DNA from: an uncultured Pseudomonadota bacterium
Lineage (GTDB): Bacteria > Pseudomonadota > Alphaproteobacteria > Acetobacterales > Acetobacteraceae
DNA length: 64,000 nucleotides
Reading direction: 5' to 3'
Assembly: GCA_963723455.1 (NCBI GenBank)
Contig: CAVRQM010000004.1
Span: forward strand, 37,324-101,323
How positions within the stretch are numbered: position 1 is the stretch's first letter; the number at the start of each line of letters is the position of its first letter. Both the position numbers and the translations under genes were made by a program. The notes beneath the pieces are model-generated. The model was given only the letters and a program-made list of their open reading frames with translations, was not told the origin of the DNA and did no database searches. This document shows, one piece after another, positions 5,189-45,631 of the stretch.

Positions 5189-6305
5189 ATGACAGGCCGC
5201 ACGCTGCTGCTGACCACCTCCCTGCTTGCAATGCCCGCGCTGGCCTCGGCTCAGCCCGTCAGCCGGGCTGTACGTGGGGGCCGGGGCCGGCTACAACTAT
5301 CTCCAGAATCAGGATGTGACGTCCAAGACCAGCAGCGGTGCGACGACGCTGTTCACCGAGCCGGGCAGCCACCTGAGCGGCTCCGGCGGCCCGCTGGTCT
5401 CGGCGAGCCTGGGTTACGGGTTCGGCAACGGCCTGCGGCTGGAAGTGCAGGGCGACTGGCGGGGGCAGCACGACAAGTACGACCACGGCGCCGGCGGCAA
5501 TTTCTCGGGCGGCGCCGACCTGCAGACCTATGGCGGGTTCGTCAACGCGCTGTACGATGTCGATCTCGGCCTGCCGGTGTTCCCGTATCTCGGGTTGGGC
5601 GTCGGCTATGAGGAAACGTTCGGGCGAAACTTCACTCTTTATCGCAACAGACCCGCCACGGGGCAGTTGCAGGAGTTCGACTTCAGCCACAACACCCAGG
5701 GCTCGATCGCGGCCCAGGGCATTTTGGGCGCGGCGTTCCCGGTGGCCGGCATACCCGGCCTGTCGGTGACCGCCGAATACCGCTTCATGTATGTAGCCGA
5801 TTCGGAGACTTTCGACGGCGCGTTCACCAACGGGTTCGGCTCGATCCCAGCCAAGATCAAGATCGGCTCGCAGTATAACCATGCCGGCCTGGTCGGGCTG
5901 CGCTACGCCTTCAACGTGCCGGCCCCGCCGCCGCCGCCGGCCCCGGTCGTAGCCGCGCCCCCGGCGGCGCAGCCGGCGCGCACCTACCTGGTGTTCTTCG
6001 ACTGGGATCGCGCCGACCTGACCGCCCGTGCCCGGCAGATCATCGCCGAGGCGGCGCAGAACGCGACGCACGTGCAGGTGACGCGGATCATGGTCGACGG
6101 CTACACCGACCTGTCCGGCACCGCCGCCTACAACCAGCGGCTCAGCGTGCGCCGCGCCGACTCGGTCGCCGCCGAGCTGGTCCGCGACGGCATTCCCCGC
6201 AACGAGATCACCACGCAGGGCTTTGGCGAGAGCCACCCGCTGGTGCCGACGGCGCAGGGCGTCCGCGAGCCGCAGAACCGGCGCGTCGAGATCGTTCTGA
6301 AGTAG
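5189..6305 (+). pseudogene. OmpA-family outer membrane protein, frame broken between signal peptide and barrel
   Basis: The signal peptide MTGRTLLLTTSLLAMPALASAQPV is in the 5189 frame. The mature part GLYVGAGAGYNYLQ... is in the 5226 frame. The intact paralog at 6592 reads AQPVDGLYVGAGAGYNYLQ continuously. The one-base indel lies at about 5261-5266. Confidence 0.8.
5888..6305 (+). repeat. 418-bp near-identical direct repeat, copy A (Pro-rich linker plus OmpA_C domain of the upstream paralog)
   Basis: It aligns base for base with 7272-7689 (offset 1384). By eye there are about 6 differences. Similarity ends at the stop codon (TAG versus TAA). Confidence 0.9.
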
Positions 6306-6591: not shown

Positions 6592-7689
6592 ATGAAGCTC
6601 CGCAGCGCGCTTCTCACAGCAACCCTGCTCGCGACCCCGGCGGTCGCGATGGCTCAGCCGGTCGATGGCCTGTACGTGGGCGCCGGCGCCGGCTACAACT
6701 ACCTGCAGCCGCTCAAGCTGCACGGCTCGCTTGACGGCGGCATCGACGGCGGCTCGGCGAAACTGCGCGGCGACGGCGGCTTCGTGGGGTCGGCCAGCGT
6801 CGGTTACGGCCTGGGCAACGGCTTTCGGCTTGAGGTGCAGGGCGACTATCGCCAGGATCATCAAAGCCTGAAAAACGGCAGCAGCGGGGTCCAGGGCGGC
6901 GACGGGGATACCCAGAGCTACGGCGGCTACCTGAACGCGCTGTACGATTTCGACATCGGCTCGCCGTTCTTCTTCCCGTATGTCGGCCTCGGCGCGGGCT
7001 ATCGCTGGACCGAATTGCACAATTTCAGCGCCTACGTCCCGGGCGTGGCCAACTTCACCGGCAACAATAACACCCAGGGCGGCTTCTCGGCGCAGGGCAT
7101 GGTCGGCGCGGCCTTCCCGTTCCCGGGCATGCCGGGTCTGTCGATCACGGCCGAGTACCGCTTCACCGGCGTCTTCGAGAAGGAGCGTTTCGGCGGCACG
7201 GTCACCTCGCCGCTGCTGCTCGCGCCGGTCGGAGCGACGGCCAGGGCGAACGACCAGTACAATCATTCGTTCCTGGTCGGGCTGCGCTACGCCTTCAACG
7301 TGCCGGCCCCGCCGCCGCCGCCGGCCCCGGTCGTGGCCGCGCCCCCGGCGGCGCAGCCGGCGCGCACCTACCTGGTGTTCTTCGACTGGGATCGCGCCGA
7401 CCTGACCGCCCGTGCCCGGCAGATCATCGCCGAGGCGGCGCAGAACGCGACGCACGTGCAGGTGACGCGGATCATGGTCAACGGCTACACCGACCTGTCC
7501 GGCACCGCCGCCTACAACCAGCGGCTCAGCGTGCGCCGCGCCGACTCGGTCGCCGCCGAGCTGGTCCAGGACGGCATTCCCCGCAACGAGATCACCACGC
7601 AGGGCTTTGGCGAGAGCCACCCGCTGGTGCCGACGGCGCAGGGCGTCCGCGAGCCGCAGAACCGGCGCGTCGAGATCATCCTGAAGTAA
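6592..7689 (+). CDS. OmpA-family outer membrane protein (beta-barrel N-domain, Pro-rich linker, OmpA_C peptidoglycan-binding domain)
   Basis: 365 aa. Signal peptide MKLRSALLTATLLATPAVAMA. A GGAGA ribosome-binding site lies upstream. C-terminal motif TDLSGTAAYNQRLSVRRADSVAAELV...NRRVEI. Confidence 0.9.
   Translation: MKLRSALLTATLLATPAVAMAQPVDGLYVGAGAGYNYLQPLKLHGSLDGGIDGGSAKLRGDGGFVGSASVGYGLGNGFRLEVQGDYRQDHQSLKNGSSGVQGGDGDTQSYGGYLNALYDFDIGSPFFFPYVGLGAGYRWTELHNFSAYVPGVANFTGNNNTQGGFSAQGMVGAAFPFPGMPGLSITAEYRFTGVFEKERFGGTVTSPLLLAPVGATARANDQYNHSFLVGLRYAFNVPAPPPPPAPVVAAPPAAQPARTYLVFFDWDRADLTARARQIIAEAAQNATHVQVTRIMVNGYTDLSGTAAYNQRLSVRRADSVAAELVQDGIPRNEITTQGFGESHPLVPTAQGVREPQNRRVEIILK
7272..7689 (+). 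repeat. 418-bp near-identical direct repeat, copy B
   Basis: Partner of 5888-6305. Confidence 0.9.
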
Positions 7690-37017: not shown

Positions 37018-37806
37018 TCAACGCCCGGCGGCTCCCCCAAAATCTTCCAGCACCGCGGCCAGCGCTTCGGGCTGCACCTTCACCGTTCCGGCAAACGGAT
37101 GGTCGATCGCAATGATGATCAGCAGCCCGGACAGGATCAGCACCGAAAGCATCGCCGTCATCAGGCTCTGCGCGCGCAGGTTTTCGGTGCCGAAGAAGAA
37201 CGTGAACGCGATCGTCACCGCCGCGCCGCCGAACAGCACCAGCCAGACGATGCCGGGCACGATGCCCGACGCCATGACCAGCCGGGCGCGGCGTGACTGG
37301 GTCACCAGATCGAGCTGGTGCAGGATCTCCGACATCAGCGCCGCCCCGCGCCGATCGCCCGGATTGTAGGTCAGGACGGCGGCATAGACGCCGTCCAGCG
37401 CGCGGGTCGCGGCGGCGCTTGCCTCGCCGTGCTGCATGGCGGGCCAGTCCGCGTCGATGACGGAATGGAGGTAGCCGGTCAGCCCGGCGCGGATCGCCAC
37501 GCCGGGCGCGCCGTCGACTCCGGTCGCGAGGCGGTAGATGGTCGCCGCCGCCCCGGCCTCCTGCGCCACATCGTTCTCGGCGTCGCTGAACTTTTCCCAG
37601 ACGATGATCACCGCGAAGGCCAGCAGCACGGCGTACAGCACGCCGACGGTCGCGAACTTGAATCCGGCGACCTCATTGTTCGTCCGGAGGATGTCCAGGC
37701 GGACCCGGCGGCGGATCAGGACCGGCCCGATCATCGCGACCAGCGTGACGATGCCCACGAGAAGGACCCCGGACAGCCACAACGGCGCGGTGGTCAGGAG
37801 CATCAT
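37018..37806 (-). CDS. DUF4239-like integral membrane protein (4 predicted TM helices)
   Basis: 262 aa. Two N-terminal and two C-terminal hydrophobic helices flank a soluble middle. It starts 4 nt after the stop of the MotA-like gene. Confidence 0.65.
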   Translation of the reverse strand: MMLLTTAPLWLSGVLLVGIVTLVAMIGPVLIRRRVRLDILRTNNEVAGFKFATVGVLYAVLLAFAVIIVWEKFSDAENDVAQEAGAAATIYRLATGVDGAPGVAIRAGLTGYLHSVIDADWPAMQHGEASAAATRALDGVYAAVLTYNPGDRRGAALMSEILHQLDLVTQSRRARLVMASGIVPGIVWLVLFGGAAVTIAFTFFFGTENLRAQSLMTAMLSVLILSGLLIIIAIDHPFAGTVKVQPEALAAVLEDFGGAAGR

Positions 37807-37810
37807 GCGA

Positions 37811-38968
37811 TCATCGCGGCTGCTCCTCGGCCAGCGCCGCGATGGTGCGCGTCAGGATGCGCAGATCGGCCCGCAGCTCCGCCGTGCTCTGCGCCCGGCC
37901 CTGTTCGGTCTCCGCCAGCAGGCGCTGCAAGTATTGCTCGATGTTGCGCAGGTGCCCGCGCATCGCCTCCTCCGGGCCGCCCTCGGCGCGGCGCTCGCCC
38001 AGGCGCTGCAGGGCCGGGGCCAGGGCCTGCTGGGTCTCGGCGATATGCAGCATCAGCTGCTGGTTGGCGCGCATGGTGTCCGACAGCGTGGCGATGCGCT
38101 CAGTCAGGCCCAGCACAGCCTGGTTGGCCTCGCGCCTGCCGTCCTCGCCGCGCATCAGCACGCGCTGCAGTCCTTCCATGTTCTCCGCCGTCTGCTCCAG
38201 CAGCGCCTGCACATAGACCGGCACCGAAGCATCGCCCTCGCCGCCCAGCACGCCGGAGGACAGCCGGGTGATGCCGGCCAGCCATTCCTCCAGCTCGTTG
38301 AAGAACCGATTCTGCGCCTGGCCGGCGGTCAGGTCCAGGAAGCCCAGCACCAACGCCCCGGACAGGCCCAGCATCGACGACGAGAACGCCGTGCCCATGC
38401 CGTGCAGCGGCCGCGCCAGCCCCGTCTTCAGCTGCTCGAACAGCACGTTGATGTCGCCGGTGCCGACCGACATGCCGCCGATCACGTCGCCCACCGATTG
38501 CACGGTCAGCAACAGGCCCCAGAACGTGCCGAGCAGGCCCAGGAAGATCAGCAGTCCCACCATGTAGCGCGACAGCTCGCGGCTTTCGTCCAGGCGGCTG
38601 CTGATGGTGTCGAGCAGCGAGCGCATCGCCTGCGAGGAGATGGTGAACCGCTCGTGCCCATCGCGCCCCTTGCCGGTGCGCGCCGCCAGCATCGCGGCCA
38701 TCGGCGCCAGCAGTCTTGGCGCGGGCAGCGTGGCGATGCGGGCGCGGGCGCGCTGGAAGGTCTCCAGCCAGCGCACCTCGGGGTTGAGGCGCACGACCTG
38801 GCGCAGGTTCCAGAACACGCCGATCGCCAGCACCACCAGGATCAGGCTGTTCAGCACCACGTTGTTGTCGAACGCGGTCAGCAGCAGACGGAACAGCAGC
38901 GCCACCACCACCGCGACCGCCAGCAGGAACAGCGCCATGCGCAGCACGAACACGGTGGGCCGGGTCAT
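37811..38968 (-). CDS. MotA/TolQ/ExbB proton-channel family protein with a ~165-aa C-terminal coiled-coil tail
   Basis: 385 aa. Two N-terminal TM helices. Channel core YMVGLLIFLGLLGTFWGLL...GMGTAFSSSMLGLSGALVLGFL. Then a heptad-like Q/E/R/L-rich tail (…LLEQTAENMEGLQRVL…ANQQLMLHIAETQQAL…NIEQYLQRLLAETEQ…). The ATG overlaps the upstream stop (ATGA). Confidence 0.8.
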   Translation of the reverse strand: MTRPTVFVLRMALFLLAVAVVVALLFRLLLTAFDNNVVLNSLILVVLAIGVFWNLRQVVRLNPEVRWLETFQRARARIATLPAPRLLAPMAAMLAARTGKGRDGHERFTISSQAMRSLLDTISSRLDESRELSRYMVGLLIFLGLLGTFWGLLLTVQSVGDVIGGMSVGTGDINVLFEQLKTGLARPLHGMGTAFSSSMLGLSGALVLGFLDLTAGQAQNRFFNELEEWLAGITRLSSGVLGGEGDASVPVYVQALLEQTAENMEGLQRVLMRGEDGRREANQAVLGLTERIATLSDTMRANQQLMLHIAETQQALAPALQRLGERRAEGGPEEAMRGHLRNIEQYLQRLLAETEQGRAQSTAELRADLRILTRTIAALAEEQPR

Positions 38969-39759
38969 GGCGGGCGCACCCCGGCGGGCTGCGCCGAGGG
39001 CTTCGGCGTGGCGGCCACGATGTCCACCCGGTCGGGGGGCGCGCCGGGCGGGTTGGCCTCGCCCGGCGGAGCCGAGGCGCCAAGGGCGCGGACAAAGATG
39101 CGGGTGGACGGGATGCCTTCGGTGATCAGCACGCTGCGCACCGCCAGACCGCGCGCCAGCGCCAGACGGCGCGGCGTCGAGGGGTCGTTCGCGTCGCCGG
39201 CGGCAAAGGCGGTGACGGTGAAGGTGGTCGCGGCGAACGGCGGCGCTGCGTGCGCCAGGCTCCGCACCGCGGCATCCGTCGCCGGGTTCAGCTCGGAGCG
39301 GCCGGCGCCAAAGGTGACGCGCAGCCCGTCGGTCCGCGGCGTCGCCTCGCCAGGCGCGTCGGCCGCCACCGGCACGGGCGGCGGCGGCGGCACCGGGCGG
39401 GTGGGCACCACGATCGGCGGCGGCAGCACCGGCGCGGGCGGCGGCGCTGCCGGGATCGCCAGGCTGGGCTTGGCTGGCGCGCCCGGCAGCGTGCCGGGCA
39501 GGGCGGCGTGCGGGTTCGGCTTGCCGCCGCCCTTGCTGGCGCTGGCGGCGACGGGATGGGTGCTCCGCGTGGTCGCGCGCCGCTCCGGCGGCCGCGTGGC
39601 CCGCGGGTGCCGACCCGAATCGGAGGAGGCGGCGGGCGGGGCGAGCTGGTCCAGCGCCTGCGGATTGACCGTGGTCTGCGCCTGGGCGCCCCCGACGGCC
39701 CCCGCCAGCATTGCCGCGACCAGGGCTGCAGCGGCGCGGTCGCGGCGCCGCCCGCTCAC
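38965..39759 (-). CDS. MotB/OmpA-like protein (N-terminal hydrophobic segment, Pro-rich linker, OmpA_C-like domain)
   Basis: 264 aa if the GTG at 39759 is used; it overlaps the suhB stop as GTGA. The N-terminus is RRRDRAAAALVAAMLAGAVGGAQAQ. The C-domain is LRVTFGAGRSELNPATDAAVRSL...RRLALARGLAVRSVLITEGIPSTRIFVRALG. An upstream ATG at 39801 is an alternative start. Confidence 0.7.
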   Translation of the reverse strand: MSGRRRDRAAAALVAAMLAGAVGGAQAQTTVNPQALDQLAPPAASSDSGRHPRATRPPERRATTRSTHPVAASASKGGGKPNPHAALPGTLPGAPAKPSLAIPAAPPPAPVLPPPIVVPTRPVPPPPPVPVAADAPGEATPRTDGLRVTFGAGRSELNPATDAAVRSLAHAAPPFAATTFTVTAFAAGDANDPSTPRRLALARGLAVRSVLITEGIPSTRIFVRALGASAPPGEANPPGAPPDRVDIVAATPKPSAQPAGVRPP

Positions 39760-40589
39760 GCCCGGCCGGCCGCCGCCAGACCGAGCCGCGCCGCCTCGCA
39801 TAGCAGCGGATGCAGATGCGGGTTCGCGGCGACGATGTCGCCGGTCTCGCGAGGGTCCGGCCCGTCCGGCGCGGTGACATAGCCGCCCGCCTCGCGCACG
39901 ATCACCAGTCCGGCCGCCATGTCCCACGGCTTCAGCCGCATCTCCCAGAACCCGTCGAACCGCCCCGCCGCCACCCAGCACAGGTCCAGGGCCGCCGAGC
40001 CGAAGCGGCGGATCCCGGCCACCTGCGGCATCAGCGTGCCGAGCGTGCGGGCGAAGGCCAGGCGCATGTCCGGCGGCGAGACCGCGAACGGGATGCCGGT
40101 GGCGAACATCGCCTCGCTCATCTCGCGCCGCGCCGAGACCCGCAGCCGGCGTTCGTTGACGAACGCGCCTGTGCCCTTTTCCGCCCAGAACATCTCGTCG
40201 CTGGCCGGGGCATAGACCACGCCCGCCGCCAGCTCCGAGCCGCCGTCGTCCAGCCGCCGCTCCAGCCCGATGCTGATCGACCAGTGCGGGATGCCGTGCA
40301 GGAAGTTCGAGGTGCCGTCCAGCGGATCGACGACCCAGCGCCACGCCCAGTTGTCGCTGCCCGAGGCGCCGCTTTCTTCCATCAGGAAGGCATAGCCAGG
40401 GCGGGCCTTGGCCAGGTCCTCGCGCAGGCTGGCCTCGGCGCGCAGATCGGCCTGGCTGACGAAATCGCCCGGCCCCTTGACGCTGACCTGCAACTGCTCG
40501 ACCTCGGCAAAGTCGCGCAGCAGGCGCTTGCTGGCGCGCTGGGCGGCGTTCTGCATCACCGTCATGATCGGCGACAGGCGCAGCGCCAT
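39756..40589 (-). CDS. suhB: inositol monophosphatase family protein
   Basis: 277 aa. FLMEESG...WVVDPLDGTSNFLHGIPHW...GSAALDLCWVAAGRFDGFWE. Confidence 0.9.
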   Translation of the reverse strand: MALRLSPIMTVMQNAAQRASKRLLRDFAEVEQLQVSVKGPGDFVSQADLRAEASLREDLAKARPGYAFLMEESGASGSDNWAWRWVVDPLDGTSNFLHGIPHWSISIGLERRLDDGGSELAAGVVYAPASDEMFWAEKGTGAFVNERRLRVSARREMSEAMFATGIPFAVSPPDMRLAFARTLGTLMPQVAGIRRFGSAALDLCWVAAGRFDGFWEMRLKPWDMAAGLVIVREAGGYVTAPDGPDPRETGDIVAANPHLHPLLCEAARLGLAAAGRA

Positions 40590-40606: not shown

Positions 40607-41173
40607 CTAGCCCTTGAACCGTTCGACGTAGCTGGCGTCCTCGGTGCGCACCACGATGCGCTCGCCAGTCTCGATGAACGGCGGCACGCTGGTCTTGACC
40701 CCGTTGGACAGTTTCGCCGGCTTGTAGCTGCTGGCCGCGGTCTGGCCCTTGACCACCGGATCGGCTTCGACGATTTCCAGGACGACCGTCTGCGGCAGGT
40801 GGATGCCGACCGGGTCGCCCTCGACCAGATCGACCTCGACCTGCATGTTGTCCTGCAGGAACGCGGCCTGATCGCCCAGCAGGGCGACCGGGATCATCGC
40901 CTGCTCGAAAGTCTCCGGGTCCATCAGCACCAGATTGTCCCCGTCGGTATAGGAGTAGGTGTACTCCTTCTGGTCGGTCTGCAGTCGCTCGACGGTGTCC
41001 GCGGTGCGCCAGCGCTCGTTGGTCTTGTTGCCGGTGCGCAGGTCGCGCATCTCCACCTGGATGAAGGCGCCGCCCTTGCCGGGAGTGATGATCTGCTGCT
41101 TCAGCACGGTCCAGCGGCGGCCATCGTGCTCGATCACCTGACCGGCGCGGATCAGGTTTGCCTGCTGCTTCAT
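40607..41173 (-). CDS. efp: translation elongation factor P (PGKG loop, Lys-type)
   Basis: 188 aa. MKQQANLIRAGQVIEHDGRRWTVLKQQIITPGKGGAFIQVEMRDLRTG. Confidence 0.95.
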   Translation of the reverse strand: MKQQANLIRAGQVIEHDGRRWTVLKQQIITPGKGGAFIQVEMRDLRTGNKTNERWRTADTVERLQTDQKEYTYSYTDGDNLVLMDPETFEQAMIPVALLGDQAAFLQDNMQVEVDLVEGDPVGIHLPQTVVLEIVEADPVVKGQTAASSYKPAKLSNGVKTSVPPFIETGERIVVRTEDASYVERFKG

Positions 41174-41355: not shown

Positions 41356-42378
41356 TCATAGAGGCAGCGCGTGTTCCCGCCCCGCCGGGTCGCGCACCTG
41401 TCCGGCATCCAGATCCGCGTAGCTGTCCAGCAGCGGCACCTTGCCGTGGCCGCCCGGGATGTCGAGCACATAGGTCGGCCAGGCCAGCCCGGTGACGCGG
41501 CCGCGCAGGGCGGTCAGCAGGCGCTGGCCTTCGGCGATCGGCACATGGAAATGCGCCGTGCCGGGCGCGGCGTCGAGCTGATGCAGGTAGTACGGCTTGA
41601 CCCGGGCGGCCACCATCGCGCGCAGCAGCGCCTCCAGCGCCGCCTCGGAATCGTTGACGCCGCGCAGCAGCACCGACTGCCCCAGCACCGGGATCGCCTC
41701 GGCCTGCGCCCGCCGGATCGCCGCGCGCGCGGCCGGGGTGAACTCGCGCGCGTGGTTGGCATGCACCACCAGCCACATCGCGCGCTCGGTGCGCAGCGCC
41801 GCCGCCAGCGCCGGGGTCAGCCGGGCCGGATCGGCCACCGGCACGCGCGAGTGGATGCGGATGGTCTCGACATGGCCGATCGCGGACAGCGCCGCCACGA
41901 TCGCGCCGAGCCGGCGTGGCGACAGCATGAGCGGGTCGCCGCCGGTCAGGATCACCTCGCGGATCGCCGGATGCGCGGCGATCCAGGCATAAGCGGCGTC
42001 CAGCTCCGCCTCGGTCAGCACGCCGCCGTCATGGCCCACATGCTCGCGGCGGAAGCAGAACCGGCAATACACCGGGCAGATCAGCAGCGGCTTCAGCAGC
42101 GCGCGGTCGGCGTAGCGATGCACCACTCCCTTCACCGGCGAGAACGCCGCGTCGCCGATCGGGTCGGCATGTTCGTGCGGGGCGCTCGCCAGCTCGGCCG
42201 GGCTGGGCAGGAACTGGCGGCCGATCGGGTCGTCTGGGCGCTCGATCAGCGCCCGCACGGCGGGCGTCACGGCCACGGCGTAGCGGGCCGCTACCGCGTC
42301 CAGCGCTTGCGCGTCGGAGGCGCGGGCCAATCCGCCGCCGATCAGGGCGCGCACGTCGCGCAGGGTGGGTTCGGGCAT
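41356..42378 (-). CDS. epmB: lysine 2,3-aminomutase-like radical SAM protein (EF-P beta-lysylation, EpmB)
   Basis: 340 aa. Radical SAM cluster motif CPVYCRFCFRR. ILTGGDPL...IRIHSR...HANH...VLLRGVND. Confidence 0.85.
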   Translation of the reverse strand: MPEPTLRDVRALIGGGLARASDAQALDAVAARYAVAVTPAVRALIERPDDPIGRQFLPSPAELASAPHEHADPIGDAAFSPVKGVVHRYADRALLKPLLICPVYCRFCFRREHVGHDGGVLTEAELDAAYAWIAAHPAIREVILTGGDPLMLSPRRLGAIVAALSAIGHVETIRIHSRVPVADPARLTPALAAALRTERAMWLVVHANHAREFTPAARAAIRRAQAEAIPVLGQSVLLRGVNDSEAALEALLRAMVAARVKPYYLHQLDAAPGTAHFHVPIAEGQRLLTALRGRVTGLAWPTYVLDIPGGHGKVPLLDSYADLDAGQVRDPAGREHALPL

Positions 42379-42405
42379 GGCGGGCGTGTTAGGATCCCCG
42401 TTCCC

Positions 42406-43422
42406 ATGCCGCAACCCGCCTGGCACCCGGACAGATTTGCCGCCCGGCTTCCCATCCTGCGCCGCCGCGCCCGGCTGGCGGCCGCCGTGCGAGGGTTTTT
42501 CGACGCGCGCGGCTATCTGGAGATCGAGACGCCCTATGCGGTGGCCGCGCCGGGCGAGGAGGTGCATCTGCGCGCCTTCGCCACCGAACGGATATTCCCC
42601 GACGGCGGGCGCGAACGGCTCTGGCTGCACACCAGCCCGGAGTTCGCCATGAAGCGGCTGTTGGTCGCGGGCGCGGGGCGAATCTTCCAGCTGGCCCGGG
42701 TATGGCGCAACGGCGAAGGCTCCGACCGGCACGCGGCCGAGTTCACCATGCTGGAATGGTATCGCCCTGACGCAACGCTGGCCGACCTGATGGACGAGAC
42801 CGAGGCGCTGTGCCGCGCCGTGCTGCCTCCGGTCGTGGCGATCGGCGACGCGCGCTGCGCGCTGTCCGCCTTTGAGCGATTGACCGTGGCCGAGGCCTTC
42901 CGGCGGTACGCCGGCGCCGACCTGCTGGCCACCGCCGGCGACGCCGCGGCCCTGGCCGCGTCCGCCGGCGAGCGGCTGCGGCCGCGAGAGACCTGGGAGG
43001 ATCTGTTCTTCCGCCTGCTGCTGTCGCGCATCGAGCCGGCGATCGGCCGTGGCCGCCCCACGTTCCTGACCCATTGGCCGGCGGCGCAGGCCGCCCTGGC
43101 GCGGCGCGATCCAGCCGACCCCCGCGTGGCCGAGCGGTTCGAGCTGTTCGCCTGCGGGCTGGAGCTGGCCAATGCCTTCGTCGAACTGACCGACGCCGCC
43201 GAGCAGCGCGCCCGGTTCCTCGCCGATCGCGCCAGCCGGCACGCCCTGTACGGCGGTCCGGACCACGCCGACCAGGACTGGGCGCTGGACGAGGATTTCC
43301 TCGCCGCCCTGGCCCACGGCATGCCGCCGGCCGCCGGGATCGCGCTTGGCTTCGACCGGCTGGCGATGCTGGCCACGGGTGCCGCCGACATCGCCCAGGT
43401 GCTATGGCTGCCGCCACCATGA
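42406..43422 (+). CDS. epmA: EF-P lysine aminoacylase (truncated class II LysRS paralog, EpmA/GenX)
   Basis: 338 aa. RGFFDARGYLEIETP...LHTSPEFAMKRLL..IFQLARVWRNGE.S.RHAAEFTMLEWY...ELANAFVELTD...GMPPAAGIALGFDRL. Divergent from epmB. Confidence 0.85.
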   Translation: MPQPAWHPDRFAARLPILRRRARLAAAVRGFFDARGYLEIETPYAVAAPGEEVHLRAFATERIFPDGGRERLWLHTSPEFAMKRLLVAGAGRIFQLARVWRNGEGSDRHAAEFTMLEWYRPDATLADLMDETEALCRAVLPPVVAIGDARCALSAFERLTVAEAFRRYAGADLLATAGDAAALAASAGERLRPRETWEDLFFRLLLSRIEPAIGRGRPTFLTHWPAAQAALARRDPADPRVAERFELFACGLELANAFVELTDAAEQRARFLADRASRHALYGGPDHADQDWALDEDFLAALAHGMPPAAGIALGFDRLAMLATGAADIAQVLWLPPP

Positions 43423-44986: not shown

Positions 44987-45631
44987 CTACGCCTCTCGCG
45001 CCGCTTCGATGGCCGTGTTCATGGCGCGCACCCCGGCGGCTGGTCCGTCGGGGTGCGACCACACCGCCCCCACCACCGCCAGGAAATCCGCGCCCGCCCG
45101 AACCAAAGGCGCGCAGTTATCCGCGGTGATGCCGCCGATCGCGACGCAGGGCAGTTCCATCAGCTCCGACCACCAGCTTAGCAACTCCGGGTCCGCCCGC
45201 GTCGGCGCGGCCTTGGTGGCGGTCGGGTGGAATGCGCCGAACGCCACGTAGTCCGCGCCATCCTCGCCGGCCTGCATCGCCAGGTCGCGGCTGTCGTGGC
45301 AGGTGACCCCCAGCATCCGGTCGCCCAGCAGCCGCCGAGCCTCCCGCGCCGGCGTGTCGGTCTGGCCGACATGGGCGCCGTCGCACCCGGTGCTGGCGGC
45401 CAGGTCCGGCCGGTCATTGAGCAGGAATGCCACGCCGCGCCCCTGCGCCGCCGGCCGCAGCGCCTGGATCGCCCGCGCCAGGTCGTCGTCGGGCGCATCC
45501 TTCAGCCGCAACTGCACCGCCGCCACGTCGCCTGCGTCCAGGGCTGCGGCCAGCAGCGCGGGAAACCGGGCCAGGTCGATCGCCGGCGGCGTCACCAGGT
45601 ACAGGCGGCAGCCGGCCGCCGGCCCGCTCAT
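44987..45631 (-). CDS. thiE: thiamine-phosphate synthase
   Basis: 214 aa. LYLVTP...VQLRLKD...LLNDRPDLA...[11 protein letters not shown]...AIGGIT. Confidence 0.9.

Follow-up and report, generated by a model that had tools for sequence, protein, structure and literature searches.

Ion-driven motors of 5:2 stoichiometry power flagella, Ton-dependent uptake and Zorya defence, as well as gliding, type IX secretion and the upkeep of the envelope by Tol–Pal. The flagellar MotA and PomA proteins cross the membrane with four transmembrane (TM) helices and keep both termini in the cytoplasm, and flagellar MotB carries, as is generally known, the motif W-x3-[YFW]-x-D-x-[LM]-[ST]-x-L-L together with an OmpA_C domain. 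ExbB, TolQ and ZorA each have three TM helices. The Tol and Ton systems are chromosomal and serve housekeeping functions, and in them a separate protein, TolA or TonB, extends a long periplasmic helix from the inner-membrane motor to the wall and outer layers. In type I Zorya (PDB 8vvn and 8qyd), ZorA joins a MotA/ExbB-like core to a C-terminal cytoplasmic helical tail, and its partner combines an Asp-bearing TM helix with a peptidoglycan-binding domain. A further pair, named 'motA' and 'motB', has been described in Komagataeibacter hansenii: the 348-residue 'MotA' has four TM helices, the 321-residue 'MotB' has one TM helix and an OmpA_C domain, and the two were the only motility-related homologues found in that genome (Jacek et al. 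2019, PMC6570709).

Here we analyse a locus in a 64,000-nucleotide stretch of contig CAVRQM010000004.1 from an uncultured member of the Acetobacteraceae; this whole stretch is referred to below as the window. The locus encodes a MotA/ExbB-like protein, which we call A, between an upstream gene for an OmpA-like protein and a downstream gene for a bestrophin-like protein. In relatives, A is normally followed on its 3′ side by a MotB-type gene, which we call C. We find that A and C form a branch of their own, poorly characterised, among the 5:2 proton motors, and that the window holds a rearranged copy. The locus itself probably encodes two parts of a three-part proton-motor module that is conserved in Alphaproteobacteria, chromosomal and non-flagellar; the third part, C, was most likely relocated.

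A tailed MotA/ExbB-like protein outside the characterised families

Homologues of A numbered more than 8,000 in a large protein search, the best 120 of them all at least 76% identical to A and nearly all full-length, and an exhaustive search of representatives returned 541 clusters (50% identity) with E < 1e-30 to A, most of which were 365–410 amino acids (aa) long and aligned end to end. An exact-match look-up of the window A protein returned no record. The membrane core of A consists of TM1 and TM2, a cytoplasmic loop of about 65 aa, TM3 (LGLLGTFWGL) and TM4 (PLxGMGTAFSSS). In an alignment of 46 diverse homologues (33–77% identical), residues N40, W67, L143, G144, G147, T148, G151, L152, T155, P187, M191, F195, G201 and L202 were invariant, and these positions cluster in TM3 and TM4. 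The motifs quoted in the preliminary description of this DNA, GTFWG…GMGTAFSSSMLG for A and RRRDRAAAALVAAMLAG for the OmpA-like protein, were found in the translations.

Profile searches placed A near several known families and inside none of them. Its strongest profile-library match was PADLOC ZorA1 (E = 1.6e-14), and against Pfam MotA_ExbB (PF01618) it scored 20.5 bits, slightly under the cutoff of 22.9 that its Sinorhizobium meliloti orthologue exceeded with 23.9 bits. The NCBIfam scan assigned A to no MotA, TolQ or ExbB family (MotA having been inspected at E ≤ 1), and the NCBIfam ZorA models scored far under their cutoffs (ZorA_2, 19.7 bits versus 100). When an AlphaFold2 (AF2) model of A, with a mean predicted local distance difference test score (pLDDT) of 85.7, was compared with the PDB by Foldseek, the top 50 matches were all ZorA, ExbB, TolQ, PomA or MotA chains. 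The best was type I ZorA (8vvn_D, E = 9e-4), many ExbB and TolQ chains followed, and the flagellar PomA and MotA structures appeared only at ranks 47–50 with E ≥ 0.08. Among sequence searches of the PDB, the single A sequence gave no match, a profile of the membrane core matched only ZorA and not significantly (E = 0.55), and a full-length profile was swamped by coiled-coil matches. A is a member of the MotA/ExbB/TolQ/ZorA superfamily that lies in none of its characterised families and is closer to ZorA and ExbB/TolQ than to flagellar MotA. The MotA/ExbB channel core that the preliminary description had attributed to A is borne out by the fold comparison, the ZorA1 match and the motifs, and A is presumed, by analogy with its relatives, to be a pentameric ion-channel or rotor protein.

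The membrane core is followed by a cytoplasmic tail of about 170 residues, for which the AF2 model gives helices at residues 173–238, 251–329 and 333–382. Its length is conserved in the family, with A proteins totalling 367–398 aa, and its C-terminal motif ELRxEIRLLxRTIA is conserved as well. The tail had been described beforehand as a heptad-rich extension of about 165 residues; its helical character and its length hold, and its heptad periodicity is weak, for which reason we call it helical and not a proven coiled coil.

A MotB-type partner encoded 3′ of A

We compared 80 loci, one per species, from Acetobacteraceae, Azospirillum, Nitrospirillum, Defluviicoccus, Kiloniella, Dongiaceae and others, scoring neighbouring genes by tblastn. 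C lies 3′ of A in 79 of them, its open reading frame (ORF) starting 10–100 nt past A, and in the sole locus without C just 339 nt of contig remain past A. The MotB-type subunit thus follows A, contrary to the B-before-A gene order of the preliminary description.

C starts with …WPG(Y/F/W)VDALSTLLMVIIFVLLVFVLAQ…, a strongly hydrophobic helix with an Asp (invariant-Asp TM helix WPGYVDALSTLLM…), and its C-terminal part is an OmpA_C domain that closes with NRRIE(I/F)RLTDR. Of the 68 C ORFs called, 62 contain the WPG(Y/F/W)VD motif of this helix with its Asp; the remaining six showed a variant residue, an N-terminal truncation or an apparently wrong frame, and tblastn still detected C in these loci. 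Between the two ends stands a helical region of very variable length, with 313 to 980 residues past the TM motif. The AF2 model of one C protein shows a continuous helix from residue 18 to about 340, and the periplasmic helix spans roughly 100–800 residues across the family and about 300 in the modelled member. The stalk varies about threefold among species, in proteins of 326 to about 995 aa (locus L029, 7182–8162, and locus L033, 7140–10127), and the TM-helix and OmpA_C ends are near-invariant despite this variation.

Four C proteins scored 414–511 bits against NCBIfam NF006543 (PRK09039, 'peptidoglycan-binding protein'; cutoff 305) and stayed under the cutoffs of the NCBIfam flagellar MotB, MotD and MotS models. 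C also matches ZorB profiles across its OmpA_C part. A literature search for 'PRK09039' gave irrelevant matches only. Judged by its sequence features, C is the genuine MotB-type partner of the A family.

The upstream OmpA-like protein is predicted to be secreted

The protein encoded directly upstream of A had been taken for a MotB-type subunit on account of its architecture. It does contain an OmpA_C domain (PF00691, 35.9 bits versus a cutoff of 27.2), which aligns to YiaD and to a major outer-membrane protein in the PDB. Its N-terminus, MSGRRRDRAAAALVAAMLAGAVGGAQA↓QTTVNP (the arrow marks the predicted cleavage site), has a positive n-region, a weak Ala/Gly-rich h-region of 16–17 residues and an AQA↓Q site, and its peak 19-residue Kyte–Doolittle hydropathy is 1.64 versus 3.11 for the TM helix of C. 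The corresponding N-termini in two sister genomes (L081 and L082), VRARRVRLLACLLLGGAFSAAAARA↓QTTENP and VRTGRVLLAGLLLAAAWSGAARA↓QTTVNP, lack the Asp, as do most homologues, and the hydrophobic segment has no acidic residue at a fixed place. Conservation in the family starts exactly at the predicted mature N-terminus, and the AxA↓Q site is kept in homologues. The MotB assignment is contradicted by the predicted cleavable Sec signal peptide and the unconserved Asp; a cleaved signal peptide is what the preliminary description had itself named as evidence against the MotB reading, and it is found here as a prediction.

Members of the OmpA-like family are built from a signal peptide, an N-terminal motif, a low-complexity Pro/Ala linker and the OmpA_C domain. 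The consensus at the mature N-terminus is (Q)VTVDxxALDxL in Acetobacteraceae and VxVDLSVLDxLG in Rhodospirillales, and a simple regular expression for the motif matched 28 of the 51 upstream ORFs with a heuristically predicted signal peptide. The short, strongly conserved VxVDxxxLDxLG element stands at the predicted mature N-terminus both in the window protein (window 38965–39759) and in the homologues from loci L001–L080, and no mention of it was found in the literature examined. It is a candidate docking peptide for the motor. The OmpA-like protein is predicted to be a secreted periplasmic accessory and not a MotB-type axle subunit.

These results bear on the possibility that A is a genuine flagellar stator MotA with the OmpA-like protein as its MotB. 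Database entries are named 'flagellar motor protein MotA' and 'chemotaxis protein MotB', and the topology of A, with its four TM helices and the TM2–TM3 loop in the cytoplasm, is that of MotA. However, A lacks an NCBIfam MotA match and resembles MotA and PomA structures only at the end of the Foldseek ranking, no flagellar genes lie close by, and the upstream protein is predicted to be secreted and has no conserved channel Asp. In addition, the C stalk in most members greatly exceeds the usual length of the flagellar MotB linker, and non-flagellate K. hansenii retains the family, as the two motility-related homologues described above. We regard a flagellar identity as extremely improbable.

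A conserved chromosomal module and its relation to described motors

Of the 80 loci, 57 have the upstream OmpA-like gene; a same-strand upstream suhB was found in 56 and a same-strand upstream efp in 49, whereas none has the bestrophin-like gene (0/80). A 4-nt overlap of the upstream ORF with A recurs in 27 loci. In some lineages suhB lies directly 5′ of A without an OmpA-like gene, as in S. meliloti, in which the order is thiE–sel1–suhB–A–C (L092, CP090106.1, 2623–7925); thiE is also near the module in the window (44987–45631). The minimal invariant pair is A plus C, and the conserved module is the secreted OmpA-like gene, A and C in that order, with the OmpA-like protein as a frequent accessory present in most lineages and not in all. 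The genes suhB and efp count here as ancient syntenic neighbours and not as established parts of the motor. The preliminary description had treated suhB, the OmpA-like gene, A and the bestrophin-like gene as one module: the linkage of the first three is widely kept, and the bestrophin-like gene is an incidental, lineage-specific occupant of the slot normally held by C. Members of the A family were found on chromosomes only, since the five 'plasmid' matches were mislabelled chromosomes of 3.5–4.6 Mb. The A–C locus is a core, chromosomal, vertically inherited locus that extends from Acetobacteraceae through Rhodospirillales to Sinorhizobium.

This distribution argues against reading the locus as a minimal or degenerate Zorya-like anti-phage system, in which a tailed motor would sense phage-induced perturbation of the envelope and its tail would signal to distant effectors. 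Such a system would account for the ZorA1 profile and 8vvn_D fold matches of A, for the cytoplasmic tail, and for the match of C to ZorB profiles. Yet Zorya is a defence-island gene system, whereas A–C is not patchy and never sits on true plasmids; its position beside efp and suhB is kept from Acetobacteraceae to Rhizobiales. That the order efp–suhB–A–C is kept in the core of the chromosome speaks against a defence role. The tail of A, moreover, is several-fold shorter than that of ZorA, the profiles of which span 383–1,063 positions, A has one more N-terminal TM helix than the three generally counted in ZorA, C carries an extended helical stalk in the periplasm, scores against the NCBIfam ZorA models fall far under cutoff, and purifying selection on A is at a housekeeping level (see below). 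The earlier remark that A recalls ZorA in a locus with no ZorC-, ZorD- or ZorE-type effector stands, and no ZorF- or ZorG-like gene was seen either in the inspected gene tables and annotated neighbourhoods, the PADLOC scan having covered the four window proteins and four C proteins and the neighbouring genes having been judged by their names and domains. A defence system of this kind is very unlikely.

Compared with flagellar MotAB and PomAB, A shares the four-helix topology and cytoplasmic termini, and C shares the MotB TM motif and the OmpA_C domain, but A adds a tail, C adds a periplasmic stalk, the flagellar context is missing and the structural similarity is weak. ExbB and TolQ are the next-best structural matches of A after ZorA, and C resembles the Tol and Ton systems in its long periplasmic helix; in C, unlike TolA and TonB, this helix is fused to the axle protein, which is of the OmpA_C type and not of the TolR/ExbD type, and A differs from ExbB and TolQ in its tail and its four TM helices. 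Neither tolA, tolB, pal nor tonB was found near A. A–C lies outside flagellar MotAB, Zorya, TolQR and ExbBD alike, and most resembles a hybrid: its topology is that of MotA, its core and tail are like those of ZorA, and its MotB-type axle is fused to a long periplasmic helix of the TolA kind.

Separation of C from A in the window lineage

The window itself contains no C. A tblastn search of the 64 kb with 68 C proteins found only the OmpA_C domains of porins at 5.2–7.7 kb, the C TM motif was absent from all six reading frames, and a search for a pseudogene remnant 3′ of A returned noise only. Four close relatives (loci L081–L086) likewise have no C in the 5–10 kb around A, and each of them has a different gene 3′ of A; in L087/L088, C stands beside A (Table 1).

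Table 1. Genes found 3′ of A in the window and in its closest relatives
Locus	Identity of A to window A	Gene 3′ of A	Strand relative to A
Window		Bestrophin-like gene	Same
L081	94%	Glutathione S-transferase (GST) gene	Same
L082	92%	Glyoxalase_3 gene	Opposite
L083/L084	84%	Phasin gene	Opposite
L085/L086	84%	GMC oxidoreductase gene	Opposite
L087/L088	82%	C, 474 aa	

The junctions at the 3′ end of A fall at window 37806–37813, L081 11158, L082 11158–11431, L083 3446–3544 and L085 3498–3502. Two of the five replacement genes are on the same strand as A and lie at most 4 nt from its stop codon or overlap it. The 3′ junction of A looks like a rearrangement hotspot.

A remains under strong constraint in this clade. 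The ratios of non-synonymous to synonymous substitution rates (dN/dS) were 0.11–0.12 for A, 0.09–0.15 for suhB, 0.07–0.09 for efp and 0.32–0.42 for the OmpA-like gene, and A keeps every family-invariant channel residue. As the values for A are indistinguishable from those for efp and suhB, we conclude that A is functional in a clade without adjacent C.

C genes without a linked A do exist, placed between rpoZ–spoT and IalB–rlmN on related metagenomic contigs (P0282 and P0296), which suggests that this is a recurrent or ancestral relocation site of the axle gene. The MotB-type (PRK09039) genes that occupy this site with no A gene linked to them are at L089 6001–7698, L090 5070–6614 and L091 5722–7266. 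The competing account is that C was lost outright, leaving A axle-less or with a borrowed partner of the TolR/ExbD type, in which case it would serve as a membrane scaffold or channel working with the OmpA-like protein and perhaps with the bestrophin-like channel. It draws on the absence of C from the window and from the flanks of A in the four relatives, each with its own replacement gene, on the retained overlap of the OmpA-like gene with A, and on two large protein searches in which no C could be assigned to relative L081. That negative is low-powered, however, since the expected identity to the queries is only 53–69%, and the bestrophin-like neighbour is unique to this genome. Housekeeping-level dN/dS and intact channel residues in A are hard to square with loss of its proton-binding partner, and related lineages do possess unlinked C genes. 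We judge it likely that C was relocated elsewhere in the chromosome; outright loss is considerably less so, and the full account in which A works without an axle or with a borrowed one is unlikely. The four-gene group seen in the window is an accident of this lineage, formed around a conserved motor module of two or three genes whose true B subunit is missing from the locus.

Family members in the literature

Translated, the published K. hansenii primers give V/M-TRPTTY, with which family A proteins begin (as in P0113, MTRPTTYLIRM), and …EFRLTDR-stop, with which family C proteins end. Because these translations match the ends of A and C, the K. hansenii 'motA/motB' genes can be assigned, on primer evidence, to the A/C family. 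K. hansenii also belongs to the Acetobacteraceae, and its MotB-type gene still adjoins A, whereas in the window locus the two are not adjacent. When the genes were overexpressed in K. hansenii, cells became elongated or filamentous, colonies spread more and the cellulose was looser, and green fluorescent protein fusions were polar, or bipolar in long cells (PMC6570709); disruption gave denser cellulose (summarised in PMC7347698). The genes were treated there as motility genes, and the upstream OmpA-like protein, the tail and the mechanism were not addressed. The preliminary description had thought the function of the arrangement undescribed; the existence of the PRK09039 model and the membership of the K. 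hansenii genes show that the family is not wholly so.

The primers published for smc03995 of S. meliloti fall on the sel1-repeat gene beside suhB, and smc03994 is suhB; A and C are assigned, by gene order, to SMc03993 and SMc03992. A ChvI-bound DNA fragment has been reported inside SMc03993, and neither tag appears in the essential-gene comparison file. RgsF, the product of smc03995, is an essential growth-pole and septum factor; the position of rgsF beside suhB–A–C is adjacency only and not functional evidence. We considered, and rejected, a MotA-like member of the S. meliloti Rgs network, as the paper on that network contains none.

Gene neighbourhood in the window

The suhB-like, OmpA-like, A and bestrophin-like genes run head to tail on the minus strand, and the four ORFs, with the overlaps and the gap that had been reported for them, were confirmed (Table 2). 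The bestrophin-like protein scored 190.9 bits against PF14023 (Pfam gathering score 32). The suhB-like protein scored 189.7 bits against the NCBIfam SuhB equivalog, for which the cutoff is 332, and the HisN model scores it too. Pfam matches, numbers of homologues and dN/dS indicate that the genes are real and not chance ORFs.

Table 2. Features of the locus, with positions in the window
Feature	Position	Strand	Evidence or remark
efp (elongation factor P)	40607-41173	-	Pfam EFP_N, EFP, Elong-fact-P_C
suhB-like gene, inositol monophosphatase family	39756-40589	-	Pfam Inositol_P, 211 bits
OmpA-like gene, 264 aa, GTG start	38965-39759	-	GTGA overlap with suhB stop
Predicted Sec signal peptide of OmpA-like protein, MSGRRRDRAAAALVAAMLAGAVGGAQA↓Q	39682-39759	-	Hydropathy, AxA↓Q site
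Conserved mature N-terminal motif, QTTVNPQALDQL in the window	39646-39681	-	Recurs after predicted cleavage site
OmpA_C-type (peptidoglycan-binding-like) domain, residues 149-236	39052-39315	-	PF00691
Gene A, 385 aa, MotA/ExbB/TolQ/ZorA superfamily	37811-38968	-	ATGA overlap with preceding stop
Membrane core of A, residues 1-215	38324-38968	-	Hydropathy, AF2 helices, invariant columns
Cytoplasmic helical tail of A, residues 216-385	37814-38323	-	AF2, family length
Bestrophin-like gene (PF14023, formerly DUF4239), 4 TM	37018-37806	-	4 nt past A stop

The genes further upstream are efp, epmA/B, a fasciclin gene and thiE, and those downstream are fabH, plsX and rpmF, all of a housekeeping kind. 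The G+C content of the region is about 70–79%, the same as that of its surroundings. The absence of flagellar, tol/pal, tonB and gliding genes close by, as first reported, agrees with the gene tables and with the Pfam domains of the neighbours. A scan for promoters and terminators over 36.7–41.4 kb found no promoter-like sites, and terminator-like sites at chance level.

Next to efp stand a divergent epmB-like gene (radical SAM lysine aminomutase, minus strand) and an epmA/GenX-like gene (plus strand) at window 41356–43422, both identified by eye from ORF translations; very long antisense ORFs of the kind common in high-GC DNA overlap in this interval and make ORF lists misleading. Elsewhere in the window, two OmpA-type outer-membrane porin genes lie in tandem on the plus strand (5226–6305 and 6592–7689). 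Their C-terminal regions of about 140 aa, made up of a Pro-rich hinge and OmpA_C, are near-identical and their N-terminal barrel halves differ, which suggests recent duplication or gene conversion.

Discussion

The evidence assembled here can be put together in a model that draws on solved relatives. A would form a pentamer around a dimeric axle of C, and proton flow via the Asp of C would turn the pentamer around the peptidoglycan-anchored dimer. The cytoplasmic tail of A may couple this movement to a cytoplasmic partner, and the long periplasmic stalk of C may transmit force to the cell wall or sense it, with the OmpA-like protein as a putative secreted periplasmic accessory factor. The role of such a motor would be a housekeeping one, in the envelope, at the cell pole or in cell length, and would lie neither in motility nor in phage defence. 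In this genome and its nearest relatives C is separated from A, and unrelated genes fill its slot. The 5:2 stoichiometry and the rotation are inferred, and so are a function for the tail and a role in the envelope.

Several points weigh against this model. The A5C2 assembly is argued from analogy. Confidence in the AF2 model of C is low (pLDDT 61.7), and only the secondary structure of that model was used. The heptad score of the A tail is 0.65, compared with 0.60 ± 0.03 for shuffled sequences, about 1.8 standard deviations in a crude test. The signal-peptide call for the OmpA-like protein is a prediction made from the sequence. No C could be assigned to the window clade among the top 120 of two protein searches, which is a weak test. 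Lastly, most of the K. hansenii phenotypes were obtained by overexpression, and their bearing on the model is indirect.

For practical work, two cautions follow from the locus: the OmpA-like gene that adjoins A upstream is not the stator B subunit, and tight packing with the bestrophin-like gene does not amount to co-function. The A/C family is a separate, strongly conserved branch whose members are routinely mislabelled as flagellar MotA or chemotaxis MotB, and annotation pipelines should not label these genes flagellar. The family has already been touched experimentally, in K. hansenii, under a misleading name.

A wider reading, which we put forward tentatively, is that Alphaproteobacteria may possess a further housekeeping 5:2 proton motor beside Tol and Ton, composed of a tailed, ZorA-like pentamer and a MotB-type axle. 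Its variable coiled coil might reach the wall and, with the OmpA-like accessory, it might work at the cell poles in the control of growth, division or envelope mechanics. Zorya could, on this tentative reading, be a derived offshoot, and the rotor and axle genes would have become uncoupled in the present lineage. Tractable carriers of A/C include S. meliloti, K. hansenii and Azospirillum, in which the motor could reveal the use of a cytoplasmic tail outside phage defence and the manner in which motors of this type engage the wall.

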